Shown: positions 49,689-64,000, counted from the first letter of the stretch. The stretch is 64,000 nt of DNA from Desulfatiglandales bacterium (GCA_963662465.1 OY759599.1:6944001-7008000); one strand, 5' to 3'. Notes: generated by a model not told the origin, from the letters alone. Numbers and translations: made by a program.

Positions 49689-50272
49689 AAATGAAAAAAA
49701 GATGCGAATGGTGCGGAGACGATCCCCTCTACGTGGCGTACCACGATGACGAATGGGGTGTTCCGGTTCATGATGATCGGCGGCTGTTTGAAATGCTGGC
49801 GCTGGAGGGCGCACAGGCCGGTTTGAGTTGGTTGACGATCTTGCGGAAACGAGAGGGGTACCGCAAGGCATTTCATGGCTTTGACGTCGAGAAAATCGTT
49901 GAATATTCACAACACGATATCAAACGCCTGCTTGCGGATTCCGGTATTGTACGCAATCGTCTCAAGATCGAATCCGTCATCCGGAACGCACGGGCTGTCT
50001 TGGCTGTTAAGAAGGAATTCGGGTCTCTGGACGCTTTTCTCTGGCGATATGTCGATGGCGTTCCCCGGCAAAATGCCTGGCGGTCAATGACGGAATTGCC
50101 CGCACATACGGTTCAATCCGATGCCATGAGCAAAGATCTTAAAGGCCGTGGATTCAACTTCGTAGGCCCGACAATCTGCTATGCCTTTATGCAGGCCGTG
50201 GGCATGGTCAATGACCATACGACGGATTGTTTCCGATATCGAGAAATTGAGGCTGCCCGGCAAGACCGTTGA
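49682..50272 (+). CDS. tag: DNA-3-methyladenine glycosylase I
   Basis: YHDDEWGVP, EGAQAGLSW, QAVGMVNDH...C. Confidence 0.95.
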   Translation: MVKMKKRCEWCGDDPLYVAYHDDEWGVPVHDDRRLFEMLALEGAQAGLSWLTILRKREGYRKAFHGFDVEKIVEYSQHDIKRLLADSGIVRNRLKIESVIRNARAVLAVKKEFGSLDAFLWRYVDGVPRQNAWRSMTELPAHTVQSDAMSKDLKGRGFNFVGPTICYAFMQAVGMVNDHTTDCFRYREIEAARQDR

Positions 50273-50354
50273 AGACGGCACGGCCATGATGTGCGGTTTT
50301 TGTTAACCCGTTGCAATGTAATGGATAGGCAGTTCTATCCAGGGAGAAAAAAAT

Positions 50355-50708
50355 ATGTCAACCGAAAACGTGCCTCAGGGGCCGGATACGATCGTAGGTT
50401 CCATCGAAAACCAGGCCGATCCTTCACAGCGCGTCGATATCAAATATTTGCAAGAGGATAATGCCTTCGTGACCTCGGGGATTCAAACCCATTTCGCGGA
50501 GAAAGAAATTTTTATTCCGGCTTATCTGGTGGTCACGGATTTTCAACTCATAGGCGCCATTGTATCTGAAATACTGGAAAAACTCTCCCTGGCCCGGGAG
50601 GGGGAAACCACCTTCGATTATGTTCCCCGGTTTCAGGTGTTGGACAAAGTCTACACCCTTGTGGATGCGGGAGAATACATGAAGCTGTCGGTGGCGGAAC
50701 CGGCGTAA
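50355..50708 (+). CDS. Hypothetical protein
   Basis: ORF with SD gggag. Confidence 0.6.
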   Translation: MSTENVPQGPDTIVGSIENQADPSQRVDIKYLQEDNAFVTSGIQTHFAEKEIFIPAYLVVTDFQLIGAIVSEILEKLSLAREGETTFDYVPRFQVLDKVYTLVDAGEYMKLSVAEPA

Positions 50709-50731
50709 ACCTTTTCATCGTAAAAAGAGGA

Positions 50732-51394
50732 ATGTTGGTGGCTGAAGAAAGCGTTGTTTTCGAATCCGGGGGTTTGAAACTGGAAGGGCTTATGGACCGG
50801 GTTCAGTATGGTGCGGGGGTGGTGGTAACGCATCCACACCCCCAATACGGCGGAAGCATGCACAACAATGTGGTGGAATCGTTGGTAAAGGCCTATGGAA
50901 AGGCAGGCTATGCGACCCTTCGCTTTAATTTCAGGGGGGTTGGGAGAAGTGAAGGCCGATATGATGAAGGCGTTGGGGAACAGGCGGATGTCCGTGCGGC
51001 GGTCAAATACCTGAGGGATCTGGGCATGTCTTCCATCGACCTGGCTGGGTACTCCTTTGGGGCATGGGTCAATGCGCGTGGCATAAAGGATGTAAATGAT
51101 GTTGCCCGAATGATCATGGTTTCTCCGCCCGTGAATTTCATGGATTTTTCGTTTTTGGAATACAGCGCCAAAATTAAGCTCATCATTGCCGGCGAAAAGG
51201 ACGACATTGCGTCACCGGATATGATCCGAAAAATGCTTCCAAAGTGGAACAAAGAGGCGGTTTTTCACATCATTCGTGGGGCGGATCATTTTTATGGGGA
51301 TAAAACCGATGAAATAGAGGCGATTATCGGGAGCTTTTTGAGGCAGGAAGCGCCGGTCGCTGTTTTGTCGACGGAAAACCCTGGATGGCTTTGA
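50732..51394 (+). CDS. Alpha/beta hydrolase
   Basis: HPHPQYGGSM, FNFRGVG, GYSFG, GADHF. Confidence 0.9.
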   Translation: MLVAEESVVFESGGLKLEGLMDRVQYGAGVVVTHPHPQYGGSMHNNVVESLVKAYGKAGYATLRFNFRGVGRSEGRYDEGVGEQADVRAAVKYLRDLGMSSIDLAGYSFGAWVNARGIKDVNDVARMIMVSPPVNFMDFSFLEYSAKIKLIIAGEKDDIASPDMIRKMLPKWNKEAVFHIIRGADHFYGDKTDEIEAIIGSFLRQEAPVAVLSTENPGWL

Positions 51395-51413
51395 GTCTTT
51401 AGGCATTGTGAGG

Positions 51414-51571
51414 CAGTTATCAGTTGTCAGTTATCAGCGCTGGAGGTTGTTTTAAAATTTGAGGACTTGGGAGTATGGAAGAGCGCTTCACCACGCAATG
51501 CTCGTGGGACTCAGCAAATCCCTTCTGAAAATAAATCGATATCAATACGCCGTTACTGACAACTGATAACT
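51414..51571. repeat. Heptamer inverted-repeat element
   Basis: agttatcagttgtcagt ... actgacaactgataact (17-bp perfect IR). Confidence 0.75.
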
Positions 51572-51609
51572 TTCTTGTTCTTTATGACAGAAAACCAGGA
51601 AATAATGCA

Positions 51610-52026
51610 CTAATACCAGGGACCCCACGGTCCCCATGGTCCCCACATGCCAAAATTCATTTGGGCATCCATATTGGACTGTGCGGCCCAGCGGTAGTCC
51701 TGGGCAATTTTTCTCTGGGCGGCCAGCTTTTGAAACTGCTGGTAAGATTTTTCGCTGCCCACATACATGCACTCGCATGAAGTGGCATCCGCATAATAGA
51801 AATAAAGTTTTCCATCGTGCTGTTGCGGTACCAGTTTGCGTTGGGGAAGTCCTTTCAATGCGGCTAGTTTTTCAGGCGTTTCGGCGAGCTTCATTTTGAA
51901 ACCCGAGGCGGCGAGCAGTCGTTCCATATCCATGGCATTTTGATTTTGAATGCCGGCGCATGACGCCAAAAGGGTTGATAAGGCAATTAGAACAGTGACG
52001 AAAAAGAGTCTTTTAATCTTGATCAT
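51610..52026 (-). CDS. Hypothetical lipoprotein
   Basis: Signal peptide with LASC lipobox; WGPWGPWGPW tail. Confidence 0.75.
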   Translation of the reverse strand: MIKIKRLFFVTVLIALSTLLASCAGIQNQNAMDMERLLAASGFKMKLAETPEKLAALKGLPQRKLVPQQHDGKLYFYYADATSCECMYVGSEKSYQQFQKLAAQRKIAQDYRWAAQSNMDAQMNFGMWGPWGPWGPWY

Positions 52027-52082
52027 TCTTCATTTCTCCTTATGCAGGCAGGTTTAAGAACAATGGCTCAGCGGTCTCAGGA

Positions 52083-52673
52083 TCAGGCGGTTGGCGGTTT
52101 CTGAAGCTTTGTTAAAACGATGTATTTATCCTTGAAGTCAACCCTGAACCTGTCGCCAACCGCAAACCCGGTTTCAATCAAGTGGCCTCTTGAAATATCA
52201 ATGCCTTCATCCGTGAATTTCACGGGGCTTGTTTCTCGATAGAGACCCTCTACTTCAATGTAGCGCTTGAGTTTATAGGCCAGATAGCCGATTTTTTGTT
52301 GAAGGGTTCGAAGCGAAATCCCCGCTTCCTGGCAGATTTTTTCCGCTTTTTTGTATTTTTGTATGAAAAAAAGCAACTGTTTGTCAGAGGTGAGGATTTC
52401 CTGTTTTCTGGGAAGCTCCGTGACTTTTTCTTCCCTGGCAACCGTTTCAGGCTTGGGCTCAGCATCCTTTACAGCGGCGATTGGTCCTGCTATCTCGGGT
52501 TGTATGGCTTTGACCGGTTTTTCCCCGTCAGGAAGAAGCTGCTTAAGGTCGTTATTCCATCGATCCCAATTTGGGAGGGCTTTTTCCAGATCTTCGTTCC
52601 AATGATCCCAAGTTTCCCAGTCAGTTTCTAAAGCGGCGTTCCCGGTACTCTCCTTTAGCTTTTCCTCTTCCAT
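52083..52673 (-). CDS. Hypothetical protein with HTH and AbrB/SymE-like C-terminus
   Basis: ICQEAGISLRTL; LIETGFAVGDRFRV...IVLTK; SD aaggag. Confidence 0.55.
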   Translation of the reverse strand: MEEEKLKESTGNAALETDWETWDHWNEDLEKALPNWDRWNNDLKQLLPDGEKPVKAIQPEIAGPIAAVKDAEPKPETVAREEKVTELPRKQEILTSDKQLLFFIQKYKKAEKICQEAGISLRTLQQKIGYLAYKLKRYIEVEGLYRETSPVKFTDEGIDISRGHLIETGFAVGDRFRVDFKDKYIVLTKLQKPPTA

Positions 52674-52981
52674 TTTAAATCTCCTTTATCTTTGAAATGT
52701 TATGGTGGAAGTGTATGGGGAATCAAACCTAGATCAATTAATATTAAAAATCCTTGCTGTGTAAAACTATGAATCAACAATATGCGCTAAATATGGACAT
52801 TAACATGCAATATGGTATAATATCAAGGTGTTTTTAGCCAAATGTTAGCTTTTTGTTAAAATGAAAACAAAAAACCGCTTGCTCTGTTAAATTCACGAGA
52901 GCGATGTGCGAAGCGTATTTATCTGGGGCGGAATCAGCGTAACCTGCCCGCAATCCTTAGCAATGTAAGGCAGGTGGGTTC

Positions 52982-52996
52982 GCCAAATTCGTGCCA
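52982..52996 (-). promoter_or_regulatory. Possible sigma54 -24/-12 site
   Basis: TGGCACGAATTTGGC with GG-N10-GC spacing, upstream of the gene starting at 52673. Confidence 0.3.
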
Positions 52997-53040
52997 AAAA
53001 AGCCTTGACAACCCCACTCCCTTTCCATAACACTCTTTTT

Positions 53041-53190
53041 ATAAACAATCTCTATGAACAGGAAATACACTATCATCTCCTAATGTTCCTGACCTCGGAA
53101 ACGAACCTCTCCCAACGGAAAATGGCCAAACGGGTGGAGGTCAGTTTGGGTAAAATTGACTCTGTCAGTTCACGGAACTGACAGAGAAAT
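53041..53190 (+). pseudogene. EPS-associated MarR-family regulator remnant
   Basis: EQEIHYHLL...NLSQRKMAKRVEVSLGKI, then frameshift and truncation. Confidence 0.65.
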
Positions 53191-53355
53191 GCATCTTTTT
53201 AGGCCCCAAAATAGGCTGAAATAACGAGGTCTGTAATCCAAAGGGCGGAGCTGTATCCCCCCAAAGCTAAAAAACCCATGAAATCCGTGCCAAAACAATA
53301 ACGCCAATAAGGAAATCCTGACCCCATGATTCTCATGGGTGTTCCTCCGGTTATC

Positions 53356-53628
53356 ATGATATTTGAGTGGGATGATGAAAAAAGCCGCAGCAACCAAATC
53401 AAACACGGCATTGATTTTGATACGGCGAGGGTATTATGGGATGACGGCAGTCGCGTTGAAATCCAAAGTCCGTATCCGCTTGAAAGTAGAAGTATTCTGA
53501 TAGGTAAAATAGACAGGAAACTATGGACTGCGATTTTCACGAGACGCGAAGGTGCCGTGCGAATTATATCAGTCAGACGGGCCAGAAAGCGGGAGGCAGA
53601 ACTCTATGACCAAAATAAAATTGGCTAA
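53356..53628 (+). CDS. BrnT family toxin
   Basis: FEWDDEKSRSN.IKHGIDF, VRIISVRRA. Confidence 0.92.
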   Translation: MIFEWDDEKSRSNQIKHGIDFDTARVLWDDGSRVEIQSPYPLESRSILIGKIDRKLWTAIFTRREGAVRIISVRRARKREAELYDQNKIG

Positions 53629-53872
53629 AACTATTGAGGAATTTGACCAGAGATTCGACGACGGTGAAGATATCCATGAATTGATCGATATGTCCGAGGC
53701 CAAGGTTCTTCGGCACGGTCGGAAGATTCGTATCACACTCGACGTGGCGGAAGACCTGGTTAGAGAAATCGATAGCATCAGAGATATGATAGGCGTGGAT
53801 CGAGGGGCCTTGATCAAGGTGTGGCTATACGAAAGGGTAAAACGAGAAAGAGACTTGAATGCCAAGGGTTGA
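53606..53872 (+). CDS. CopG/BrnA-like antitoxin
   Basis: EFDQRFDDGEDI, RITLDV, GVDRGALIKVWL. Confidence 0.88.
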   Translation: MTKIKLAKTIEEFDQRFDDGEDIHELIDMSEAKVLRHGRKIRITLDVAEDLVREIDSIRDMIGVDRGALIKVWLYERVKRERDLNAKG

Positions 53873-54368
53873 AGGCTGCTTTATAAAAATACTTTTTCAT
53901 AACATGCACTTTACTCAATTCAGCAGGCAACGCCAACAAAATCCAAATGTGGCACAAACCCCAAAAGGTCAAACATCCTCGGACACCAAGGCGTTGCCTT
54001 TTCCTGATCGGTTTTACCCCGATCCGGAAAAAACAAAAACCCTTTGCGCTCTTCGCGCCTTCGCGGTTCAATATTTTTTTGTCTTTCAATCGTCAATCAG
54101 CAATCATCAATCCCAATGCGTCCCCCATTACACGTTTGATGTAGTCATGGCGACAAGGCGCCAGCGTCCCCCATTACACGCGAGTTCTGAAAAAACCAGC
54201 TTGCTGGAAAAGCCGGCAAAAATTTAACCATCCGGATCTGAGAAAGCCCCCGGAACCGAACAACCAACCCTGAGTGATATTGTAACCCAAGGGGCGGAGC
54301 TATGCTGGTCCCCAACCCCGGGCGCCCAAAATCTGAAAGCTATTTGAACAATAAGCAAAGCCTGATTC

Positions 54369-55280
54369 ATGAAAATCAACCATCTCGGAGCAAAAAATTG
54401 CGTCACCGGCTCATGTCACCTGCTGCAGACCCGTCCGGCTTCAGCCGGTGGGCTGAGCAATGCCGGCCACATTCTGGGATCATGTTTTATCCGTTTTGAA
54501 ATCCCCACGGAAACCCCCTCTTCAGTGATTTTCTCAGGAGACCTCGGATGCACGGACACACCCATTTTACCCGACCCTGACACACCCGACGCCTGTGATC
54601 TTCTGATATTGGAATCCACCTATGGAGACAGAAACCATACCAACAGAAAAGACAGACTCAACGCTTTGGAACAATTACTCCATAAAGCCCATGCTGACAA
54701 AGGCATTGTTTATATCCCCGCATTTTCCCTTGGAAGAACCCAGGAGCTGATTTATGAACTGGACCGGATAGGAACAAAGGTTCCCGTGTTTGTGGATTCT
54801 CCCCTCGGCCTTAAAATTACAAAAATTTATTCAGACCTTGAAAAATTCTGGGATAAAGAGGCAAAGGCTCTCAAGGCAAAGGGCGACCACCCCATTGATT
54901 TTAAGAATCTCTACGCAGTGGAAAAATACCGGGATCATAAAAAACTCCTGAATATCTCCGGCCCTGCCATCATCATAGCCGGCAGCGGCATGTGTACAGG
55001 CGGCCGCATTGTGGATCACCTGGAACACGGACTTGAAGATCCGGCAAATGATATCTTTTTTGTGGGATACCAGGCAAAGGGAACACCCGGAAGGCGAATG
55101 ATTGAGAAACAAACTCCGGTTAAAGCAGGCATCCATACCCTTACAGGTTATTCAGCCCATGCCGATCAGAACATGCTTGTCAACTGGGTGAAATCCATGC
55201 CCACTCCGCCAGGGGAAATCCGGCTGGTTCATGGGGAAAGCCACGCCCGCCATGCCCTTGCCCGAGCATTGGAATTATAA
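54369..55280 (+). pseudogene. MBL/beta-CASP metallo-hydrolase with internal deletion
   Basis: VTGSCHLL joined almost directly to AGHILGS, HxHxDH absent; FSGDLG, ESTYG, SAHAD, VHGE retained. Confidence 0.8.
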
Positions 55281-55304
55281 TCAATAACCACAATTCGGAT
55301 ACAT

Positions 55305-55754
55305 TTAGTAAAGCAGGAAAATCAGCTTGTCATACACCGTGGGCAATTTGCCTTTCTGACCTCCTCCTGCTTTACGCTGACGTTTACCCTGAGCAAGCTG
55401 TTCCTGATACACCCGCTCTTTCTCTTGTGTCAATGCTATACCAAAAGCATTTTCAAGAGTTCCCCGTTTTTCTGTTGGCACTCCTGTTAAAGTTCGGAGT
55501 TGACGATCATCTTTGATTTCTGGTCTCATTCTGGTATATCCTCCTCAATAAGATTTTGAAGAAGTATACCACCATTTTTTATTGAGGAAGGCCTCTAATC
55601 AATCGGCTATTAGAAATCCCAGACACGATATATAAAAACCTCCAGGATGGTTGGTGGCAGTTTCAACATGATTGATCAGAATTTTTTTCGGAGATATTCA
55701 AGAAATATTTTCTGAGCGTGCGAAATGTAAGGTATAGTTGTTCGGAACAGTCTT
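55305..55754 (-). mobile_element. IS5/ISL2-like transposase N-terminal remnant
   Basis: DDRQLRTLTGV...RKAGGGQKGKL...KLIFLLY; possible end aagactgttccgaa. Confidence 0.6.
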
Positions 55755-55859
55755 TTAAGAGGTGAAACAAACCTTGACATGTGTAATCAGATATGGGCTA
55801 AAATAGGATAAGTTACGTTTGTTTCCAACATTTCCAGCGCAGCACTGGAGAAAATAACT

Positions 55860-56051
55860 ATGGAATTCAACATGTTTTATAAAAAAAAGAATGACTGGTT
55901 TATCGGCCATATCCAAGAATACCCCGATTATGAAAGCCAGGGTAGAACCTTGGATGAATTGAGAGAAAATCTAATAGAGATCTATAGTGATATCAATGAA
56001 GGCCTGGTACCTGACGCTGAACCATTTCAGTTAATGGAAGTTGCAATTTGA
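55860..56051 (+). CDS. HicB family antitoxin
   Basis: YPDYESQGRTLDELRENL. Confidence 0.85.
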   Translation: MEFNMFYKKKNDWFIGHIQEYPDYESQGRTLDELRENLIEIYSDINEGLVPDAEPFQLMEVAI

Positions 56052-56221
56052 AAAGAAAAGAATTGCTTAGGATTATCAAAGCAAACGGTTGTGTGTTTGT
56101 GCGTCATGGCGGCAATCACGATTGGTATAAGAATCCTACATCCGGCATAAGCCAACCTATAGCGAGACATACTGAAATAGAAGCCGGCCTTGCAAAGAGA
56201 ATCGTTAAAAGGCTTTCTTAG
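56048..56221 (+). CDS. HicA family toxin (absent from ORF track)
   Basis: Manual translation MKRKELLRIIKANGCVFVRHGGNHDWYKNP..SQPIARHTEI. Confidence 0.88.
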   Translation: MKRKELLRIIKANGCVFVRHGGNHDWYKNPTSGISQPIARHTEIEAGLAKRIVKRLS

Positions 56222-56371
56222 GCTTTTCAAAAAAGCCCTAAAGTGGGGTGAAAATAACCTTGAAATGGGGAAGTAGCGGTGGGACAGGTAAGTTACTTTT
56301 GTTACCAACGTTCCCCATTCATGTGCCCATTGCAACGCGTCCAATCCTTAATATCGGAGTTTTAGAATATT

Positions 56372-56683
56372 ATGATCTCAGCATTACACGCAAAAGCATA
56401 CCCCTATGTTGATTGTGATCCGGAAATCGCTGACGGAAAGCCAATAATTTCCGGAACGCGGATTACAGTCAGATGCATTGCCGGCTATTACCAAATGGGA
56501 ATGAGCGCTGACGAAATTTTGACGACATTGGCGCATCTAACGCCCTCACAGCTACATTCTGCTTTGGCATACTATTTTGACCATCAAGTTGAAGTTGATT
56601 CTGATTTGGCTGAATCTTCAGACGTAGAGTTCTGGAAATCGCAAGTTACACACCGCTCCAATCTGAAAAGCTTGAACTCATGA
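56372..56683 (+). CDS. DUF433 antitoxin
   Basis: PEIADGKPIISGTRITV, ALAYY. Confidence 0.9.
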   Translation: MISALHAKAYPYVDCDPEIADGKPIISGTRITVRCIAGYYQMGMSADEILTTLAHLTPSQLHSALAYYFDHQVEVDSDLAESSDVEFWKSQVTHRSNLKSLNS

Positions 56684-57020
56684 AAATCGAATTATTTCTT
56701 GATGAAGATGTGCATTCGGGATTAGCACATGCCTTGCGAAAGAGAGGGTATGATGTCATTCACGCTCAGGAATTGGATAGGAAGGGACTGTCCGATTTAG
56801 ATCAACTGTTTTTTGCAATAGAGCAAGAACGCTGCCTTTTTACTTTCAATGTGAAAGATTTTGTGATTATCCACAACGAGCAGGCAAAAGCCCAACAAGA
56901 ACATTGGGGGGGATCATAGTCTCAAAACAACTCCCATTCAGAGAAACCATGTATAAATTTTTAAACCTGCTTCAACGATATCGTAAAGAAGAAATGAAAG
57001 ACCGATTAGAATTTCTATAG
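56680..57020 (+). pseudogene. DUF5615 PIN-like toxin, frameshifted at a G7 tract
   Basis: LFLDEDV, LFTFNVKDF, HWG; continues IIVSKQL...LEFL in another frame. Confidence 0.8.
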
Positions 57021-57182
57021 ATCTTAACACTTTGCGGCTTTGTGCCTTTGCCGCTTTGGACCTTTTCTTCCACATATTGACAAGCGAAAAGACATATGGG
57101 ATTTTTCCAGAATAGTGGAATAGTGACAACGTTCCGCATTACATGCCAACGTCCCCCATTACTATTAACATAAGGTGAAAAT

Positions 57183-57428
57183 ATGATCCCGAAACCACTG
57201 TTTATTCGTGCCGAATGGGACGAAGAGGCCCGTGTCTGGGTTGCAACAAGTGACGATGTTGCTGGACTGGCCACTGAGGGACCGACTTTAGAGGAATTGA
57301 TCGAAAAGCTGAAAATAATTATTCCAGAACTTCTTGATGCTAATCAAAACGAGACTGTCGGTAGAGGTGAAGTGCCTTTCGAGCTTCTGATCCGTCGCTT
57401 TGAGATTGCCCAACGCCTGGGCCACTGA
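57183..57428 (+). CDS. DUF1902 (HicB-like) protein
   Basis: AEWDEEARVWVATSDDVAGLATEGPTLEEL. Confidence 0.88.
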   Translation: MIPKPLFIRAEWDEEARVWVATSDDVAGLATEGPTLEELIEKLKIIIPELLDANQNETVGRGEVPFELLIRRFEIAQRLGH

Positions 57429-57557
57429 TGGCCGATCCAAAAGATTAAAGCAACAAAAGTGCCAACGTCTCCCATTCCCGTCCCCCATTCCAGGAGCATT
57501 ATAGGATGTCCCCCATTACACATTTCAACAACCCATTGCGATATTTGGGAGGAGCCA

Positions 57558-57782
57558 ATGAAAAAATATGAGAGTATCGAGAGCAATCCCAATGTCATGT
57601 TCGGGAAACCGGTAATCAAGAATACCCGAATTACGGTTGAACAGGTCTTACGGAAACTATCCGGAGGGATGACAACTCAGGAGATCATTAGGGATCATCC
57701 ACACTTAAGACCTGAGGATATCTTTGCCGCTCAAGAATTCGCGGCTGATTACTTGGCTGCTGAAGAAATTGCTTTCGGATAA
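57558..57782 (+). CDS. DUF433 antitoxin
   Basis: NPNVMFGKPVIKNTRITVE, HPHL.PEDI. Confidence 0.9.
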   Translation: MKKYESIESNPNVMFGKPVIKNTRITVEQVLRKLSGGMTTQEIIRDHPHLRPEDIFAAQEFAADYLAAEEIAFG

Positions 57783-57793
57783 GAGCCGACAAA

Positions 57794-58271
57794 TTGAGAT
57801 TCCTGACCGATGGGTGTTGTGATGCTGGACTGGTGATGTCCTTAAGAGGTGATGGGCATGATGTCTCATGCGTATCGGAGAGGCACGCCGGCGGTTCTGA
57901 TGACGAAGTCTTGACTGAAGCCTACATCGAAAAACGATTCTCATAACAGAGGATAAAGATTTTGGAGATCTTGTATATCGACTTAAAAAGCCTGTAAGGG
58001 GAGTAATCCTGATTCGAATGGATGTAAACTCTCATGGCAAGGGGCTTTGCCACCCCCTCGCATGAAAATGACATTAAGCTAACAGGTAACAGTTAACAGG
58101 TAACAGCTAACGGCTAACAGCTAACAGCTGCATTTTCATGGTAAAGAAAGACACATGAAGTGGCGCCGATTGAAGAATCTGCTAATAAATCACGAGATAC
58201 GGTTGTCGGGTCATTTTGTTGTCGTTGATGTTAACAAATTTCGGTTTCGGCCCTTGCTTTTTTCAGTATAG
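57794..58271 (+). pseudogene. DUF5615 PIN-like toxin, frameshifted and interrupted by a MITE-like insert
   Basis: RFLTD, ITEDKDFGDLVY, GVILIR, C-terminus FVVVD..KFRFRPL. Confidence 0.75.
58029..58144. mobile_element. MITE-like element with CATGAAAATG/CATTTTCATG inverted repeats and a heptamer array
   Basis: Removing it restores the DUF5615 reading frame (MDVKERHMKW). Confidence 0.7.
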
Positions 58272-58457
58272 CACCACAAAATTCCTTAAAAGCCCCTTTT
58301 TAGCCCCGAAAAAAACTGTTTAAGGACCAAAATCAGTCCAATTTGAAAGCTTTTCAATAATATATCAGTAGGTTGTTGCGGTCCGACCCCAAGAGGCCCA
58401 CATATCAATCAAAAAGAGCAGTATGTAACTGACGTTCCTCTTTTCACCTTGCTCTTG

Positions 58458-58959
58458 ATGCCCCGCGCCAACCGACATTTTATCCCCGGCTATATTTGGC
58501 ATATCACCCATCGATGCCATAAGAAAGAGTTTCTTCTAAAATTTGACAAGGACAAAAGTCGCTGGTTATGGTGGCTATTTGAGGCGAAGAAGCGCTATGG
58601 AACGTGTATCTTGGATTACATGGTTACGCGATCTCAATAGGGTCCGAGCTGGAGTGGTGAGCCACCCATTGGAGTGGGGGCGTTTTAGCGGTTACAACGA
58701 AATTCAGAACCCTAAAGAGAGATACTCGCTCATTGATCACGCACAATTGGTGACTCTTCTCGGCAAGGAGGGCATAGATGACCTCATTGGTTCGCACGCC
58801 ACTTGGGTGGATGAAGCCGTGAATCAGGGAAACAAGCCACGTGAGGTCAAGTGGACGGAAAGCATCGCGGTTGGAAGCAAAGAGTTCGTGGAAAAGATCA
58901 AAGAAAAGCTAGGGGCCTTATTTCTGAGTCGTAAGGTGGAAGGGGAAGAGGCGTTATGA
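58458..58959 (+). pseudogene. REP-associated tyrosine transposase (RAYT/Y1 HUH), internally deleted
   Basis: MPRANRHFIPGYIWHITHRCH..DYMVT joined to DLNRVRAGVVSHP.EW, WTESIAVGS; HUH and catalytic Tyr region missing. Confidence 0.85.
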
Positions 58960-58983
58960 ACTCCACGATCCACAACGCCCCTA

Positions 58984-59154
58984 CAGGCTTACAGAGAATT
59001 CCTTTCCATGGCGGGATCTTTAGCGAAAACTTTCAGAGCTCTTTCTTAAAACCCGTTTTTTAGGGTCAAAAGGGGGGGGGTAAGGGTCTAAAACAGGCCT
59101 CTTTTTGTGGTTATCGTAGTTATTACAAGTTGTTGCTGAGGACCGACCCCAAGA
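58984..59154 (+). repeat. RAYT 3' tail ending G(T/A)CCGACCCCAAGA; copies at 61788-61959 and (partial) 63009-63109
   Basis: Near-identical sequence of about 170 bp. Confidence 0.85.
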
Positions 59155-59159
59155 GAAGG

Positions 59160-59245
59160 AAAAAGAATGGGATAAATCAAATTGTCACATTCAACATAAA
59201 GGATTTCCAGAAATATCCCTGGCTGACCGTTGTGGATCCGCGTGG
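59160..59245 (+). pseudogene. C-terminal fragment of a PIN toxin
   Basis: NGINQIVTFNIKDFQKYPWLTVVDP. Confidence 0.6.
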
Positions 59246-59637
59246 CAGACGCAGTTCATTTCGAACTTCCGCGATATGCCCTCTGCCTTCAGACTCCCAC
59301 AGTCGTCGAGAATAGTGGAATAGTGGCAACGTCCCCCATTACACAAAGAGCGCTGCTTGTGGAGCGCGGGAGAGGGCAGGCTGGTGAAATGGCGGGTGCC
59401 TCGGCTGGATGGTAAAACGGTTTAAAATAAATGGGTTACTTCAATTTGGAGCGTGTAACCCAAGGGACGGAGCTGTATCAGCGCATCGATATTTTCAAAG
59501 GAAGAAGGGGAGTCAGGGGAGTAACCTTACACATTAGACGCTCAAGCCCTTAATTATGTGACGAGAAACTAAATAATTAAAGAGCGTTCCCCTGCCCACG
59601 TCCCCCCATTCACCTTTAGAAAAATGGGAGGTAAGTA

Positions 59638-59859
59638 ATGGAATCGGTTTTAATTGAGAAAGAAGCCATGAAACTGCCGCTAGTTGAAAGAGCTTTGCTT
59701 GTTGATCGTCTTTTGCAGACGTTGGATGCTGAAAAGGATTTATCAATAAAGGCTTGGACAGAAGTGACAGAGAAACGATTGGAGAAATTCCGTGCAGGAG
59801 AAATGGAAGCGTATGATGGTCAAGCCGTTATCGAATCTCTTAGGAAAGAATTACGATGA
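59638..59859 (+). CDS. Addiction-module antitoxin
   Basis: AMKLPLVERALLVDRLLQTL..AW.EV.EKR. Confidence 0.88.
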   Translation: MESVLIEKEAMKLPLVERALLVDRLLQTLDAEKDLSIKAWTEVTEKRLEKFRAGEMEAYDGQAVIESLRKELR

Positions 59860-60155
59860 CCAAATTTCGTATTCTTTCAATAGCTGCCCGTGATTTGGCA
59901 AATGCAATTGAGTATTATGAGACCAAGAGTGTGGGATTGGGCGGTGACTTTCTTGATGAATACGAAAGGACCATTTCAAGGATTTGCAGGTTTCCAGAGG
60001 CTTGGGCGCTTGTCAGCCCAAACCAGCGAAGATGTCTCATGCGTCGTTTTCCTTATGCTGTATTTTATTCCAGGATGGGTGAAGAAATCATTGTAACAGG
60101 TGTCGCCGATCTTCGTATGGATCCTGAAAAGATTCGAAAAGTGCTCCTGAGATAG
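59856..60155 (+). CDS. RelE/ParE family toxin
   Basis: YYE....LGGDF, RRFPYAVFY; ATGA overlap with the antitoxin. Confidence 0.9.
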   Translation: MTKFRILSIAARDLANAIEYYETKSVGLGGDFLDEYERTISRICRFPEAWALVSPNQRRCLMRRFPYAVFYSRMGEEIIVTGVADLRMDPEKIRKVLLR

Positions 60156-60209
60156 GGGATTCGTTATGCCTCGTTTGTCAAGTTGGCGCTGAATGGCATT
60201 GTGGCCATT

Positions 60210-60320
60210 GAACGCCTTATAGCACGCGCTGCCGATTTTGAGGGGAAGACCATCAGTCATTTTATAATGACCAGTGCCTTGGAGCGTGCGGAAGAAACCG
60301 TTCAGAGACATCAGATGAAA
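60210..60320 (+). pseudogene. DUF1778 antitoxin fragment
   Basis: LIARAADFEGKTISHFIMTSALERAEETV. Confidence 0.65.
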
Positions 60321-60419
60321 ATTCTGCACGATATGCGTATATTATTTTCTTCCAGTTCCCTAACGACAACGCCAAAGGCTTTTATGAGCAATTCGGGTTT
60401 ATCCGCTTGTGAGGTAGAG

Positions 60420-60644
60420 ATGAAATTTAGAGCGGTCATAAAGAAATCAGAGGGCTGGTGGATTGGCTGGCTGGTCGATTTGCCAGGTGTAAATGCTCAG
60501 GAAAAGACACAAAAGGAACTGCTTGACTCTTTAAGAATCGGCGCTGAAGATATGCTTTCGATGGAAGTCCCTTTTGAGCCCGAAGCGCAAATGACGACCG
60601 TTATGGTCAAAGACCCGGCATGGGCGGAAAACCAGACTGCCTAA
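60420..60644 (+). CDS. HicB family antitoxin (orphan)
   Basis: WWIGWLVDLPGVNAQEKTQKELLDSL. Confidence 0.85.
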   Translation: MKFRAVIKKSEGWWIGWLVDLPGVNAQEKTQKELLDSLRIGAEDMLSMEVPFEPEAQMTTVMVKDPAWAENQTA

Positions 60645-60802
60645 AATTGCAACAGCTATCGTCCCAACCTGTAGCCCATGGCCCATCGCCTAATGCCTTT
60701 TCATTCTTCGTTTCCTTCGTTACCTTCTGTAAATAGCCCTTAAAAAAAATCCTGTAAAATCCTGTAAATCCTGTCTAAAAAAAAATAACCGGAGACCCTT
60801 TA

Positions 60803-61142
60803 ATGCAACAACACCAACCCAATACAACCATTCAAAAAGCCCACCCTCCCGACACATCCACCTCTCCCAGGGGAGAGGCTTTCCCCTTGCCGCGGCCCGA
60901 GGACTATAACCAGGAATTCAAGAGACTCAAGAAACTGGTGAATGAACAGCGCCTCAAGGGTCGGGAAATCGTCGTTGTCATGGGTGTGGGGTTTGTAGGC
61001 GCTGTTATGGCGGATGGGTGGTAGTGGATGTTCAGTGCGATTACCACAAGGAGAGTCTGGGGAATGTTCGTCAGGGACATGCCGACATAGAGGCGCTGGA
61101 AGAGAGTCTCAAGATTATCGGGGAGAAGATTGAACCGCATCT
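60803..61142 (+). pseudogene. Nucleotide-sugar dehydrogenase fragments
   Basis: IVVVMGVGFVGAVMA (Rossmann) fused to VVDVQCDY...LKIIGEKIEP; ends at the CAACGTCCCC motif. Confidence 0.65.
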
Positions 61143-61182
61143 ACCAACGTCCCCCCCATTCCATATAAGTATTGGAGGAATT

Positions 61183-61416
61183 ATGGAAGCTTTTGAGTTT
61201 GAAACTGTTCATGAAAATGGAATGATCACAATACCCGATGAAATTAGACATAACTTAACGAAGAAACTTAAGATAATTATTCTGACCCAAGAGGAAAAAG
61301 AAACTGCTTTAAGTAAACTGTTGCTTGATGCTCCTACATGGAATGAATCTTATATAACGGAGTTTTATAAAGAAATTCGAGAAGGATATGCAGATTGGAA
61401 GATAGACGAATTCTAG
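61183..61416 (+). CDS. Antitoxin-like protein
   Basis: FEFETVHENGMITIPDE; overlaps the downstream PIN gene. Confidence 0.7.
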   Translation: MEAFEFETVHENGMITIPDEIRHNLTKKLKIIILTQEEKETALSKLLLDAPTWNESYITEFYKEIREGYADWKIDEF

Positions 61417-61790
61417 TTGACACTTCTGTTGTTATTGATCACTTCAGAAAGAAAAATAACCAAAAGTCATTACTTTATGAACTGTCAAAAGATAACAAAT
61501 TGTTTTTGTCTGCGATAAGCAAATTTGAGTTTTTGGTAGGTACAAAACCTTCCCAAATTAGTCAAACAGAAAAACTAATTGAAGGGTTTTTTATTTTATC
61601 TTTCAATTCTAATGTTGCTGCTGTTGCAAGTGATATTGCCAAAAAATTAAAAACAAAAAATAAAATTATCGAATTTAGAGATATGCTTAAGAATTTATCA
61701 AGCCGGGATGTCGCATGGGTGTTGAGTCAACTTGGCATTACCTTTAAGAGGCATGGGAAAGAAGACGTTTTTGATGGGTTGTACTGGCAG
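61395..61790 (+). pseudogene. VapC PIN toxin truncated and fused to a HicA-like fragment
   Basis: ILVDTSVVID, SAISKFE, IEFRDM then LKNLSSRDVAWVLSQLGITFKRHGKED. Confidence 0.75.
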
Positions 61791-61983
61791 ACTTACAGAG
61801 AATTCCTTTCCATGGCGGGATCTTTCGCGAAAACTTTCAGCCGCTCTTTCTTAAAACCCGCTTTTTAGGGTCAAAAAGGGGGTTTTAAGGATCTAAAACA
61901 GGCCTCTTTTTGTGGTTATCGTAGTTATTACAAGTTGTTGCTGAGGTCCGACCCCAAGAAAAAAACAAAGGCGAGGTGAACTT

Positions 61984-62202
61984 ATGATTGATATGTCTGT
62001 TGTAAAGACGCTCTCTATAGAAGAAAAGCTGCGGGTCATGGAAGCCATATGGCAGGATCTAACTGAAGAAGAACATAATGTTCAATCTCCTGCATGGCAT
62101 CTGGAGGCATTGAAAGAGACTGAGCAGAGACGCAAAGAAGGAAAAGAGGCGGTTCTTGATTGGGGAGATGCAAAGAGAGAACTGAGGAAACGCTTCGAAT
62201 GA
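61984..62202 (+). CDS. Addiction-module antitoxin
   Basis: LSIEEKLRVMEAIWQDL..SPAWH..L. Confidence 0.9.
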   Translation: MIDMSVVKTLSIEEKLRVMEAIWQDLTEEEHNVQSPAWHLEALKETEQRRKEGKEAVLDWGDAKRELRKRFE

Positions 62203-62495
62203 AGCTGAAGATCCTTTCTTCTGCAGTTGAAGATCTTTATGAAGCCCGGTTATTTTATGAAAGACAAGGTGAGGGGTTGGGCGATTACTTTTTTGACTCG
62301 CTATTTTCGGACATTGATTCTCTGACGCTCTATGGTGGCATACATGCGAAATTCCATGGCTATCACCGTATGCTATCTAAGCGGTTCCCTTACGCCGTGT
62401 ACTATACCGTACAAAGAAAAGAGCTTGTCCTTGTTCGGCGTGTTTTGGATTTACGTCAAAATCCAAAAAAGATTCGAAAAGCTTTACAGTCGTGA
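62199..62495 (+). CDS. RelE/ParE family toxin
   Basis: FYERQGEGLGDYF, KRFPYAVYY, VLDLRQNP. Confidence 0.9.
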   Translation: MKLKILSSAVEDLYEARLFYERQGEGLGDYFFDSLFSDIDSLTLYGGIHAKFHGYHRMLSKRFPYAVYYTVQRKELVLVRRVLDLRQNPKKIRKALQS

Positions 62496-62683
62496 AAAGG
62501 TTACGCGAAAAACTCCCTTCACGCCTTTCTGTTCGCATGGGTGTTCAAAAGGCAGTCATGAGAGGTTCGGAATTAAGAACGAATCACCCAGTGTTGGAAA
62601 AATTAAGTTGACAAAGTTGCCAACGTTTCCCCATGCGGGCATCGAATCCCTGGGGGGCAAGATCGCCATAAGAAACTATTAAG

Positions 62684-63109
62684 TTCATATCAAGCAAAAA
62701 GCCGTATGTAACTGACGTTCCTCTTTTCACCTTGCTCTTGATGCCCCGCGCCAACCGACATTTTATCCCCGGCTATATTTGGCATATCACCCATCGATGC
62801 CATAAGAAAGAGTTTCTTCTAAAATTTGACAAGGACAAAAGTCGCTGGTTATGGTGGCTATTTGAGGCGAAGAAGCGCTATGGAACGTGTATCTTGGATT
62901 ACATGGTTACGCGATCTCAATAGGGTCCGAGCTGGGGGCCTTATTTCTGAGTCGTAAGGTGGAAGGAGGAGAAGGCCGATATGAACTCCACGATCCGCAA
63001 CGCCCCTACAGGCTTACAGAGAACACCTTTCTATGGCGGGATCTTTAGCGAAAACTTTCAGTAGCTCTTTCTTAAAGCCCTCTTTTTGGGGTCAAAAAGG
63101 GAGTTTTAA
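62684..63109 (+). pseudogene. Second RAYT remnant (duplicate of about 58400-59090 with a further deletion)
   Basis: Identical 63-aa ORF at 62732-62923 and 58449-58640. Confidence 0.9.
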
Positions 63110-63130
63110 CTTACATTAGGATGAAGGAGG

Positions 63131-63415
63131 TTGCAGATGGAAACACAAACATCAAAAACAAAAACCTCTTCTTTGAAAGCCATTGTTCGCGAAACCATAC
63201 AGAGCAATTTGTTGGAAGGGATTATCGAAATTCCTAACGAACTTAGGGATCGTTTGGTGGAGGTGATTCTTTTGCCTGTTGTTAGTGAAAAACACAACGG
63301 TCAAAGTAATATGAAGTCAGGTTCCTCTCTGAAGCGCTTCGCAGGTGCATGGTCCGGGGGACAACTCGTCAGGGAAGATCAGGGAAGCTATGAGGTCCGT
63401 GAGGAGCTGTTATGA
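63131..63415 (+). CDS. Antitoxin-like protein
   Basis: IEIPNELRDRLVEVILLP..FAGAW; precedes a PIN gene. Confidence 0.75.
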   Translation: MQMETQTSKTKTSSLKAIVRETIQSNLLEGIIEIPNELRDRLVEVILLPVVSEKHNGQSNMKSGSSLKRFAGAWSGGQLVREDQGSYEVREELL

Positions 63416-63718
63416 TTGCCGGATACCAATGTCTGGATTCGCTTCTTAAATCCTGGAGAGAACCATGTCAAAAATCACTTTCTTTCAGCTGATCCAGCAA
63501 CAATTTGGCTTTGTTCGGTTGTAAAAGCCGAATTGTTCTTCGGTGCCCTGAAAAGTGCTCGAATCAAAGAAAATCTTCGGCTTTTGGATGAATTGTTTGC
63601 AAATTTCGATTCTGTTTTTTTTGACGACGATGCTGCTCGAAAATACGGCGAGATCCGTTCGGATCTTGCTCGGAAGGGTACTCCAATTGGTCCGAACGAT
63701 TTGATGATTGCGGCTATT
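63412..63718 (+). pseudogene. VapC PIN toxin, damaged start and truncated C-terminus
   Basis: PDTNVWI, VVKAELFFGA, GTPIGPNDLMIAAI. Confidence 0.85.
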
Positions 63719-64000
63719 GATGGTGGTTTCAGTGCGAATGTAATACCCGGTTTTGTTGTACTGCTTGATGGCGTTACCTCGAAACCAGTGTTTGATGCAC
63801 GCATTATTGTCATACAGCCGCCGGAATGTCTTGGATGTTGATCGGCGATGAGGCCGACGATTAAAAATCTGTGAAATCGTATCGGGCAATCCGAGACGGT
63901 GGAACTTATCCAAGAGTCGTTCAAAGAGGCTGGTACAAAAACGCGCTGATCGAAACACAATATTAGAAGAAACTTCGACCTGGCTTGAATACCAGTCGTG
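63715..64000 (-). pseudogene. Fragment of an uncharacterised putative transposase
   Basis: QVEVSSNIVF...IKQYNK.G..IRTETTIN; frame open to the window edge. Confidence 0.5.

Follow-up and report, generated by a model that had tools for sequence, protein, structure and literature searches.

Toxin-antitoxin (TA) genes at this locus are separated by right ends that belong to a poorly studied transposase family acting on single-strand DNA, and further DNA has repeatedly been joined just behind these ends, which suggests an undescribed, integron-independent route to very long gene arrays. We put at roughly 60% the probability that RAYT-driven one-ended joining, copying and trimming DNA at these right ends, built the array, a reading based on sequence comparison. 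The window, that is, the whole stretch of 64,000 nt that was analysed, contains just the first 10.5 kb of a same-strand array of ~93 kb, which continues for ~82 kb beyond the window end; the limits 53190..63720 given by the first-pass annotation hold for the part under study here, in which all modules lie on the + strand (Table 1).

Extent and content of the array

Contigs of run X21 showed no differences from the window in the listed pieces, which rules out misassembly as the origin of the patchwork; this run is possibly the source sample and hence not independent. The third repeat family, a 26-nt leader element that we take to be ops-like, heads each array here, in G109 (another genus, with a 122-kb array and 162 cores) and in G084, and also lies directly 3′ of the second NusG-family gene. 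The first-pass annotation had listed a dozen-odd TA modules or remnants on the + strand, and Pfam/NCBIfam matches confirmed BrnTA, HicA, two DUF433/DUF5615 units, DUF1902, two PF09720 antitoxins and TacA/DUF1778. Two of the three PIN ORFs have a family match and the third is a 3′ fragment with 81% identity to another PIN that lies later in the array; the ORF at 60420-60644 labelled HicB exists but has no match in Pfam/NCBIfam. Broken modules predominate in the window. Just four pairs appear whole, namely BrnTA, HicBA and the two addiction pairs; each of the DUF5615 genes carries a frameshift, and two PINs, at 61395 and 63416, are truncated. None of 18 window proteins matched a PADLOC defence family.

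Table 1. Features of the array part that lies in the window.
Feature	Position	Strand	Evidence and remarks
EPS-associated MarR regulator gene fragment, locus head	53005..53181	+	TIGR04176 E 2e-6, under cut-off; full copies further down array
Ops-like leader element, array 5′ end	53232..53257	+	Repeat family D8
Right end, arm + TGACCCC core	53305..53331	+	Motif scan
BrnT-BrnA pair, intact	53356..53872	+	PF04365, NF047399
Two A-type right ends	54119..54177	+	Motif
Second ops-like leader copy	54281..54306	+	Repeat family D8
Beta-CASP metallo-hydrolase gene, internal deletion	54369..55280	+	PF10996, PF07521; longer paralogue at genome 7,040,750
HicB-like + HicA pair, intact	55860..56221	+	PF21748 (UPF0150, HicB-like) weak, PF07927
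A-type right end, one mismatch	56292..56321	+	Motif
DUF433 + frameshifted DUF5615	56372..57019	+	Family match
RAYT-A-type arm + stack of two A-type ends (degenerate at 57127, exact at 57147)	57106..57162	+	Motif
DUF1902 antitoxin, no partner	57183..57428	+	PF08972
Three stacked right ends; the last terminates a 270-bp TIR mini-element present elsewhere in the genome	57440..57519	+	
DUF433 + broken DUF5615	57558..58026	+	Family match
Heptamer tandem repeat, second junction class	58078..58130	+	Sequence; loose ends pile up here
B-type right end of RAYT-B paralogue: weak hairpin, arm, motif 58380	58283..58394	+	
RAYT-B remnant 1 + own right end (59140)	58419..59157	+	96-98% to intact gene at 7,018,215
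PIN module 3′ fragment fused mid-gene to B end; closed by arm + exact A end (59327)	59160..59342	+	
Third ops-like leader copy	59454..59479	+	Repeat family D8
Arm + two stacked ends	59570..59611	+	Motif
Addiction-module antitoxin + RelE-like ORF, intact	59638..60155	+	PF09720 (antitoxin); toxin without family match
TacA/DUF1778 fragment	60168..60320	+	PF08681
Small ORF, HicB-like per first-pass annotation only	60420..60644	+	No family match; 94% copy at genome 8,109,925
UDP-sugar dehydrogenase gene fragments	60803..61139	+	87-98% to genome 7,084,019-7,084,604 (PF03721)
A-type end, arm just 8-9 nt	61140..61162	+	Motif
Antitoxin-like ORF + PIN truncated at 61684	61183..61684	+	PF01850
RAYT-B 3′ end, hairpin + exact B motif (61945)	61788..61963	+	96% to intact gene's end
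Addiction-module antitoxin + ParE-like toxin, intact	61984..62495	+	PF09720; PF05016 weak (E 4e-4)
Arm + degenerate A-type end	62598..62636	+	Motif
RAYT-B remnant 2, right end lost	62686..63109	+	98% to remnant 1
Antitoxin-like ORF + PIN, cut by multi-copy element ~63708	63137..63717	+	PF01850

The motifs are right-hand terminal repeats of TIRYT genes

The motifs that separate the modules are right-hand terminal repeats (TIR ends) of TIRYT genes, of the TnpA-Y1 subclass 2.1 type. Each begins with a paralogue-specific arm (~20-35 nt), continues with a CGTCCCC or CGACCCC core and closes with a tail of 4-6 nt, and is the sequence found 3′ of the stop codon in intact RAYT genes; copies within a block are co-oriented. 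With at most two mismatches, CAACGTCCCCCATT occurs seven times in the window, six of these on the + strand inside 53190..63720 (expectation 0.74; 0/100 shuffles reach seven), while GGTCCGACCCCAAGA has exact copies at 58380 and 61945 and a copy with one mismatch at 59140. The claims that the motifs share a strand and that genes begin shortly after them held up. The shared 7-nt core YGWCCCC is found 12 times on + and twice on − in 53190..63720, compared with 9 + / 14 − over the remaining 53 kb of the window, and all six starts named by the first-pass annotation lie 33-63 nt downstream of the core start; 7/13 listed module starts fall at core +20..+70, a zone that makes up 6.8% of the region. A random orientation or distribution was not seen in the genome scan either: exact copies of CAACGTCCCCCATT (15 + / 1 −) are confined to three loci, and strict motifs number 31 + / 0 − in the main block and 108 / 2 in G109, compared with 51 / 52 outside arrays, where they display neither strand bias nor clustering. 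Both orientations are seen within one replichore, which does not support a lagging-strand rule.

The first-pass annotation had the array delimited by RAYT/REP motifs, and here the link to a RAYT-type HUH/Y1 enzyme stands and the REP identity falls. The motifs were rejected as REPs: the array copies lack the GTAG/GTGG foot before a short hairpin, share no common hairpin or other structure (folding z −2.6 to +1.1; −2.2 for the hairpin of the B-type end at 61945), are not dispersed genome-wide and do not form inverted doublets. In these respects they differ from those of the REPtron/REPIN-RAYT system, whose related enzymes cleave beside a short repeat and leave a 3′-OH usable for strand transfer or priming (excerpts of PMC8266576); both array RAYTs scored under the cut-off of NF047646.

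TIRYT/TIRtron elements (Di Nocera et al. 2013, PMC3733652) are the TnpA-Y1 subclass 2.1 (Quentin et al. 2018, 10.1101/279083), probably the same as RAYT group 1 (Bertels et al. 2017, PMC5581495), an equivalence given in 10.1101/2020.03.09.984088. Published passages on TIR families describe singles, dimers or clusters, without cargo or mechanism. The array elements resemble them in the Y1 core of RAYT-A with HUH, Y-x3-NP and Bac_DnaA_C tail, and in a non-REP terminal repeat whose bottom strand starts GGGG[AT]C. Set against the published GGGGWSAS, the first six bases fit and the seventh is G, not A, in both motif types, as it also is in the paired elements of the source genome. The array elements differ in a conserved tail past the core and in having dozens or hundreds of ends in head-to-tail stacks that enclose cargo genes.

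A RAYT clade without a left end

Two intact RAYT genes lie inside the array, 5 and 10 kb past the window end, so the supply in trans proposed by the first-pass annotation is unnecessary. RAYT-A (genome 7,013,342; 360 aa) carries Y1_Tnp (PF01797) and Bac_DnaA_C (PF08299, E 3e-10) with the catalytic motifs HFH (HUH) and YIHLNP (Y-x3-NP), the features of subclass 2.1. RAYT-B (7,018,215; 253 aa) has HIH and a variant Y motif, YIDLNM, and no Bac_DnaA_C-type helix-turn-helix was found in it. The two interleaved remnants that had been noted in the window were both recovered; they share a deletion (58627/58629 in remnant 1) through which both the HUH motif and the catalytic Tyr are lost, and remnant 2 has a second deletion. 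A literature search found no published biochemistry for subclass 2.1.

As judged from flanking sequence, the RAYT clade of the array has lost its left-hand end and kept the right terminal repeat. No left inverted partner was found for RAYT-A or RAYT-B, nor in any of 15 full-length close relatives with at least 170 nt upstream (best inverted match 11-15/25; the search reached 300 nt upstream, in short contigs). Distant relatives that have the right end showed paired ends in 11/11 cases (20-25/25 match), and dispersed relatives in the source genome are ordinary paired TIRtrons. The 18 right-only proteins form one branch (local support 87; 93/90 in an 8-row tree) and share a variable insert. Because no inverted repeat pair surrounds RAYT-A, RAYT-B or their close relatives, we regard them as a variant of the TIRtron rather than a plain member.

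Homology breaks at the tail of right ends

In duplicated segments, homology stops 7-16 nt past the core and unlike DNA is joined there, often in mid-gene; 417/438 same-arm pairs diverge at +7..+16, and the break is spread over ~10 nt rather than placed at one bond. Homology ends fall at the tail in 17/152 cases in the source genome (2.4 expected) and 71/242 in G109 (5.7 expected), homology starts in 15/156 (3.3 expected) and 49/297 (9.2 expected); these counts include pairs and events that are not independent of one another, and two control windows also exceeded expectation (7/156, p 0.046, source genome; 14/242, p 0.002, G109). Truncated copies start mid-ORF at the tail in 6/51 cases in the source genome (0.8 expected) and in 16/33 in G109 (0.9 expected). 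Among near-identical pairs ending at the tail in G109, 20/25 have one copy that starts at another tail (background 0.053); in the source genome 4/155 near-identical pairs end at the tail in both copies. Stutters (short tandem) were seen at 14/148 ends in G109 (42/2578 controls), at 5/64 in the source genome (59/2763 controls) and at none of 33 ends in G084.

Individual units illustrate these breaks. A 92% copy of the 56372..57019 unit occurs in different surroundings both in G010 and in run X24 and stops at arm 57125-57133, and related strains carry 57529/57532-58393/58395 as a single block. The PIN fragment at 59160..59342 is at 89% to genome 7,015,079-7,015,261, with divergence after the tail; the 61183..61684 unit has a 99% copy at genome 56,767-57,304, which starts at the motif with different upstream DNA; and copies of the 61984..62495 pair in G007 and G109 start 17 and 24 nt past the core, also after other upstream DNA. 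A 210-nt mini-element piece between two ends in the array has near copies 1.6 and 4.1 Mb away. In G005, a 90% copy of the 59638..60155 pair starts 16 nt past the core and is flanked by heptamer repeats, which indicates that cargo also moves without right ends.

The observation made in the first-pass annotation is thus confirmed, and its interpretation partly supported. That cassettes are inserted at the motifs agrees with junctions far above chance here and in G109, although about nine in ten breaks in the source-genome array (~89% of homology ends) lie elsewhere. The motif does not open a cassette, as had been assumed, but closes a unit at its 3′ side; since the DNA that follows often starts mid-gene, the units are not precisely bounded cassettes. 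As a separate observation, 5/22 indel pairs in relatives are filled and empty from tail to tail (some maybe chimeras of repeated arms), and they fit insertion as well as excision.

One-ended joining and its alternatives

In our preferred reading, a right-end-only TIRYT (RAYT-like HUH/Y1) clade would have built the array. RAYT would bind the arm and core, the DnaA-type helix-turn-helix of RAYT-A being a candidate binder, and nick one strand a few bases past the core. The strand from the donor end would run back into whatever DNA sits upstream and be moved; with no left end to stop at, it would have the right end as 3′ boundary and an arbitrary 5′ boundary, much as IS91 one-ended transposition fixes one boundary and leaves the other arbitrary. 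The preferred acceptor would be a nick at another right end, so that polarity is kept and the array grows, and joining to a nearby site would yield short tandem stutters and adjacent deletions. The site of growth would be the leader region of surface-polysaccharide operons, bounded by the ops-like element on one side and the sugar genes on the other, with TA pairs as cargo that persists because it is small and resists loss. In the source genome, IS insertions and heptamer-repeat junctions would occupy the locus alongside this process, and much of the cargo is wreckage. Tentatively, and with more doubt than belief, one may extend this to a dedicated non-integron platform that would capture and shuffle genes by means of a one-ended HUH/Y1 recombinase and be kept under selection in sulfate-reducer relatives, in which polar ends would serve as donor and acceptor, an antiterminated polysaccharide leader would express promoterless cargo, and >100 kb of TA/defence genes would be stocked.

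The position of most source-genome junctions away from motifs, the crowding of the locus by IS elements and heptamer repeats, the several crossovers inside the shared core, as expected of short-homology recombination, and the abundance of TA genes genome-wide (70/97 TA-family matches lie outside arrays, without motif excess there) would suit a passive hotspot, in which TIRYT elements and TA modules piled separately into a tolerant leader and host repair joined ends that are just fragile or recombinogenic repeats. We consider this unlikely, because the DNA joined after the tail usually has neither motif nor homology, the excess lies on one side of the motif only, the left ends and both orientations predicted by separate two-ended insertions are almost never seen, and intact catalytic motifs are retained across the right-end-only clade.

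The ends could also be att-like sites of a true cassette system, with RAYT excising and inserting whole cassettes as circles and truncated pieces arising by later decay. End-to-end units are indeed common to loci and genera (1404, 817 and 1166 nt, the 817-nt antitoxin-PIN unit spanning end to end in G000 and G109), and the five tail-to-tail pairs, the leader element heading each array and the window cassettes that start 16-24 nt past the core where relatives' upstream DNA differs point the same way; but many joins begin mid-gene right at the tail, the crossover is imprecise, most window modules are broken and none of 42 indel pairs in the source genome had a tail-to-tail empty site, which makes such a system quite improbable. 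Very little speaks for solo ends as REP-like mobile units of 35-45 nt inserting into an existing TA island: the ends are often stacked and 354/438 same-arm pairs share <40 nt upstream, yet for just 4/175 homology starts at the tail is the other, upstream part of the split sequence still present within 400 nt, the right end moves together with segments of 100-1800 nt, and the ends are confined to arrays and one strand.

Relation to integrons and other systems

That the array is a CALIN, an integron array without its own integrase on which IntI acts in trans, is scarcely credible, even with TA-rich same-strand cassettes typical of integron arrays and five IntI genes above cut-off in the genome, since our own attC heuristic (not IntegronFinder) detected no site in the 10.5 kb or in the 34 kb that follow, as against 7 beside one IntI, and the motifs, which are not palindromes, can be traced back to RAYT genes. 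Near 6 other IntI loci this heuristic detected no site, so that its sensitivity is limited. The first-pass annotation's report of no attC in the array agrees with this result, and that of no integrase is correct locally and not genome-wide; the nearest TIGR02249 match over cut-off lies ~204 kb from the array and the nearest partial match ~149 kb. The array and integrons/CALINs have in common a long same-strand arrangement, small promoter-poor TA-rich units, a repeat that closes the 3′ side and possibly a shared leader; the array differs in having no attC found and no adjacent IntI, in its enzyme class and in its arbitrary 5′ boundaries.

No IS91-type family was detected among the array ORFs scanned (148 of 256 listed); the transposase genes of the array match PF01797. 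ISCR elements are associated with gene capture. In IS91 one-ended transposition, according to excerpts of PMC13181058, an HUH enzyme moves variable upstream DNA when termination fails. The junction pattern of the array is compatible with rolling-circle, one-ended mobilisation of neighbouring DNA. The likeness to the array (an HUH enzyme, a fixed end 3′ of the transposase gene, variable upstream DNA moved) concerns only the way of working: the array enzyme is of the small Y1 TnpA-REP type, palindromic ori/ter sites are missing, another end appears to serve as acceptor in place of a tetranucleotide, and the break is imprecise. The tnpA-REP/prochlorosin system belongs to the same subclass, and there too full genes and 3′ fragments lie among an expanded cargo family, with a hairpin 3′ of the gene as in RAYT-B ends; in that system the cargo is oriented towards the transposase, repeats were not detected, and the claim of causation was withdrawn by its authors (10.1101/2020.03.09.984088), whereas here the cargo is co-oriented and the junctions map to the end.

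Motifs of the TA-rich stretch

Pfam and NCBIfam searches bore out the toxin-antitoxin (TA) modules listed in the first-pass annotation, apart from the first RelE-like toxin and a HicB-like ORF, which had no match, and every module lies on the + strand, as had been claimed. Only four TA pairs of the stretch look whole, the others being frameshifted, cut or single. The same-strand A motif (up to two mismatches) occurs seven times in the window, six of them on the + strand inside the stretch (0.74 expected), and the B motif occurs twice exactly and once with one mismatch (Table). The two motifs have the core YGWCCCC in common, which is found 12 times on the + and twice on the - strand of the stretch, and 9 and 14 times in the remaining window. 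Genes had been said to begin soon after a motif; indeed, 7 of 13 listed module starts fall 20-70 nt past a core, a zone making up 6.8% of the region. Contigs of run X21, possibly the source sample, showed zero differences from the listed window pieces. Runs X1, X23 and X24 gave partial cover with mixed strains; evidence was drawn from the covered parts, and the joints of uncovered parts were excluded. Rfam returned no match in window 50000-64000, the promoter and terminator scan was uninformative (23 and 14 sites vs 18.6 and 12.7 in shuffles) and PADLOC matched none of 18 window proteins. Further along the array, five proteins matched PADLOC candidate-system models and one matched peptidase-type models.

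A search for an intact RAYT, proposed with the motifs, turned up two intact Y1 genes further along the array, at 5.3 and 10.2 kb from the end of the window. RAYT-A encodes 360 aa with PF01797 and PF08299, and RAYT-B 253 aa. The A motif begins 3 nt past the RAYT-A stop codon and the B motif ∼120 nt past that of RAYT-B, and the arms of the arrays are the 3′ ends of different RAYT paralogues. The RAYT remnants of the window show 93-98% identity to RAYT-B and have a common deletion that takes out the HUH motif and the catalytic Tyr. Other RAYT genes of the host genome (G000) are flanked by inverted pairs with a similar core on both sides, which is the TIRYT/TIRtron layout described, with a GGGGWSAS consensus, in the consulted part of PMC3733652; the accessible text of Quentin et al. 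(10.1101/279083) places TIRYT in TnpA-Y1 subclass 2.1. The proposed identity of the motifs as REPs did not hold, the GTAG foot being absent and no hairpin being common to them. Because the motifs follow intact RAYT genes, and other RAYTs of the genome have the TIRYT/TIRtron layout, they are, judged from sequence, right-hand terminal repeats and not REPs. Some 60-95 nt ahead of the motif, the right ends of RAYT-B include a hairpin, and in some copies an inverted word resembling the core lies in its loop.

Extent and content of the arrays

The main array (∼93 kb) holds 31 strict motifs on the + strand and none on the - strand, and is followed by a short opposite-facing block. Two smaller loci of the genome have the same layout. 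In all three, the + and - blocks of ends converge head to head. The smaller two lie at the contig ends, which are paralogues of each other: 12 kb agree at 99.99% and the final 10 kb at 99.5%, with ∼95% identity in further common blocks. Real duplication or untrimmed overlap may be the source, so that these two loci may not be independent. The expected motif polarity held within the arrays; outside the three loci orientation was unbiased (51 / 52). A rule based on the lagging strand was dropped, since one replichore holds arrays of both orientations.

Beyond the window, the 148 array ORFs scanned of 256 listed included TA families, ORF6N, Bro-N, GxxExxY, EPS-type MarR and beta-CASP, together with IS transposases and fragments of sugar-pathway genes. 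Of the 97 genome-wide matches to five TA families, the main array, with 1.6% of the genome, accounts for 19; the three loci together, with 3.6%, account for 27. The predicted genome-wide enrichment of motifs beside TA genes was absent at the 70 TA matches outside, and the motif was rejected as a general TA signal (same-strand core at 17/70, opposite at 17/70, background 0.25). The array of G109, from another genus, carries 162 same-strand cores in 122.5 kb, with 31 TA-type and 4 Y1 matches among 115 of 168 ORFs scanned; that of the relative G084 gave 15 TA-type matches among 34 of 39 ORFs scanned. Within the first of the smaller host loci, a 105-bp unit is also repeated ∼25 times in tandem.

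Coordinates of array features and of related sites (genome, G000:C1)
Feature	Sequence	Position	Strand
Window	genome	6,944,001-7,008,000	
HicB-like ORF without match	window	60420	
B motif, exact	window	58380; 61945	
B motif, one mismatch	window	59140	
RAYT-A	genome	7,013,342-7,014,424	
RAYT-B	genome	7,018,215	
Hairpins before RAYT-B right ends	window	61850-61889; 63080-63101	
Main array, start	window	∼53,200	
Main array, end	genome	∼7,089,500	
Head-to-head meeting of + and - blocks	genome	7,089,073-7,090,028	
Smaller loci	genome	28-110 kb; 8,080-8,161 kb	
Paralogous contig ends	genome	29,146-108,114; 8,082,092-8,161,625	
105-bp tandem units	genome	86,282-88,975	
1404-nt block, two copies	genome	7,019,179; 7,087,682	
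270-bp element, near copies	genome	5,365,430-5,365,689; 2,927,207-2,927,467	
Heptamer/octamer tandem repeats	window	58078-58130; 60706-60783	
Heptamer/octamer tandem repeats	L251		
1609-bp units beside IntI gene	genome	4,412,723-4,425,185	
RAYT-A, with in-frame insert	L001	5342-6424	
Third repeat (candidate ops-like site)	window	53232-53257; 54281-54306; 59454-59479	
Third repeat, elsewhere	genome	4,821,069; 6,342,654	-
Third repeat, elsewhere	genome	2,483,900	+

Homology junctions at right ends

The counts of junctions, pairs and duplications given here are not independent events. In the G000 array, with multi-copy elements masked, homology ended at +3..+20 from a core start in 17/152 cases (2.4 expected) and began at +7..+30 in 15/156 (3.3 expected), with controls at 1, 2, 0 and 7. 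The G109 tails held 71/242 ends (5.7 expected) and 49/297 starts (9.2 expected), one upstream control also being raised (14/242). Same-arm pairs of ends diverged at +7..+16 in 417/438. To guard against a purely intergenic effect, the count was limited to copies with a homologue that begins within an ORF: such mid-ORF starts lay right behind a tail in 16/33 cases in G109 (0.9 expected) and 6/51 in G000 (0.8 expected), with controls of 0 and 1.

Among near-identical pairs of G109, both copies ended at a tail in 25/67; 20 of these 25 have one copy starting at another tail (background 0.053), as do 20 of the remaining 42. The corresponding G000 figures were 4/155 and 1/4. Examples are a 1404-nt block present twice in the main array, an 817-nt antitoxin-PIN unit common to G000 and G109 end to end, and 210 nt of a 270-bp mini-element that has near copies elsewhere in the genome. 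This gene-less element follows a primase-like ORF and is bordered by the TIR core in either orientation; its two copies break off immediately past the right core, next to TA genes. Window modules occur singly, with other DNA upstream, in the relatives G005, G007 and G010 and related strains, and a syntenic array copy sought in 40 relatives was not found, the matches being to single modules only.

We put at roughly 60% the reading that RAYT-driven one-ended joining at right ends copies and trims DNA. HUH enzymes leave a 5′-phosphotyrosine and a 3′-OH able to prime or attack (PMC8266576, in the part consulted), and IS91 moves upstream DNA upon failed termination (PMC13181058, from the text available). 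A nick just past a right end would, where a left end to stop at is missing, fix the 3′ boundary and leave the 5′ boundary free; if joining then takes place at the nick of another end, polarity and array growth would follow. The strand, exact bond, intermediate and gain-or-loss direction of the reaction are what we infer. That the ends form a passive hotspot is unlikely. A precise cassette system is less likely still. Tail-to-tail filled/empty pairs made up 5/22 indel pairs in relatives and 0/42 in G000. Solo ends as the moving units are very improbable, their insertion being rare (4/175).

Short tandem duplications overlapped ends in 14/148 cases in G109, 5/64 in G000 and 0/33 in G084 (controls 1.2-2.1%). 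Target-site duplication as the source of the tail was dropped, because rare tails keep to their arm family. A second class of junctions consists of tandemly repeated heptamers and octamers, and a G005 copy of the window addiction module has tandem repeats on both sides in place of TIR ends.

Search for an integron origin

The stretch had been described as free of integrase and attC sites. Five IntI genes above cut-off exist in the genome, the nearest ∼204 kb away, and a home-made scan detected no attC site in the stretch and the next 34 kb; at the IntI loci, the same scan picked up seven sites next to one gene and nothing near six further ones. A CALIN is hardly credible, though its exclusion is likely rather than complete. 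Beside one IntI gene stand eight tandem 1609-bp units, each with the same 399-aa ORF of apparently IS91-like sequence; seven identical attC-like sites recur at this period, and the units may be an amplified cassette or an assembly artefact.

A clade with a right end only

We looked at 52 of the 71 metagenome loci returned for RAYT-A. All 15 full-length relatives (at least 60% identity, at least 170 nt upstream) possess the right end and lack a left partner within the 300 nt searched, the best inverted match being 11-15 of 25; two of the 15 may be one locus. Of 13 distant full-length relatives, 11 have a right end, all with a left partner (20-25 of 25). A tree of 38 proteins, drawn up after removal of 2 near-duplicates and of 9 rows that were redundant, too distant or lacked a scorable end, placed 18 right-only proteins on one branch (local support 87) and two more right-only genes among paired ones; in a smaller tree the right-only branch of 8 rows had support 93/90. 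Behind the catalytic core, the RAYTs of the array clade have an in-frame insertion that varies in length and sequence; in RAYT-A (residues ∼150-180) it consists of short tandem repeats. For RAYT-B, a left motif is present in 10/17 full-length relatives and absent from the gene of G000 and from the relative closest to it. The exact 14-mer motif occurs in 32/105 genomes of the family, its reversed control in one. Among the matches listed, the named records that share these arms belong mostly to Deltaproteobacteria/Thermodesulfobacteriota; of the at least 80 matching loci, many of the others look like chance.

The enzyme family and its repeats are already known. The literature searched, which comprised few subscription papers and no TnpA-Y1 supplementary tables, yielded no description of polar cargo arrays built by a clade with right ends only; the nearest precedent is the prochlorosin preprint (10.1101/2020.03.09.984088), whose authors withdrew the causal claim. 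The portion of PMC5581495 consulted notes group 1 as the most IS-like true RAYT group, without more. What appears new from the sequences is the lack of a left end as a trait of the clade, the ∼100 kb arrays and the junction counts. For the largest non-REP RAYT-like group, the literature consulted gives terminal repeats, and neither a reaction nor a role. One clade now offers a candidate substrate with defined parts (arm, core and tail), a cut predicted to be strand-polar and to lie a few bases past the core, and hundreds of natural junctions, which makes the role of the group testable with the existing cleavage and strand-transfer assay. If true, this reading would provide another way, next to integrons, of building ordered TA/defence gene arrays of great length, an HUH enzyme appending DNA at a short non-palindromic site, and an account of the common fragmented TA-rich leaders in polysaccharide loci that integron searches miss.

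Leader repeat and polysaccharide setting

A third repeat stands at the head of each array in G000, G109 and G084 and directly behind the second NusG-family gene of G000. Copies elsewhere in the genome include some that precede two other islands. This repeat is a candidate ops-like recruitment site of the lineage. The part of PMC7593976 consulted supports the general role of ops leaders only. Intact polysaccharide genes lie downstream of the G109 array and of the two smaller G000 loci.
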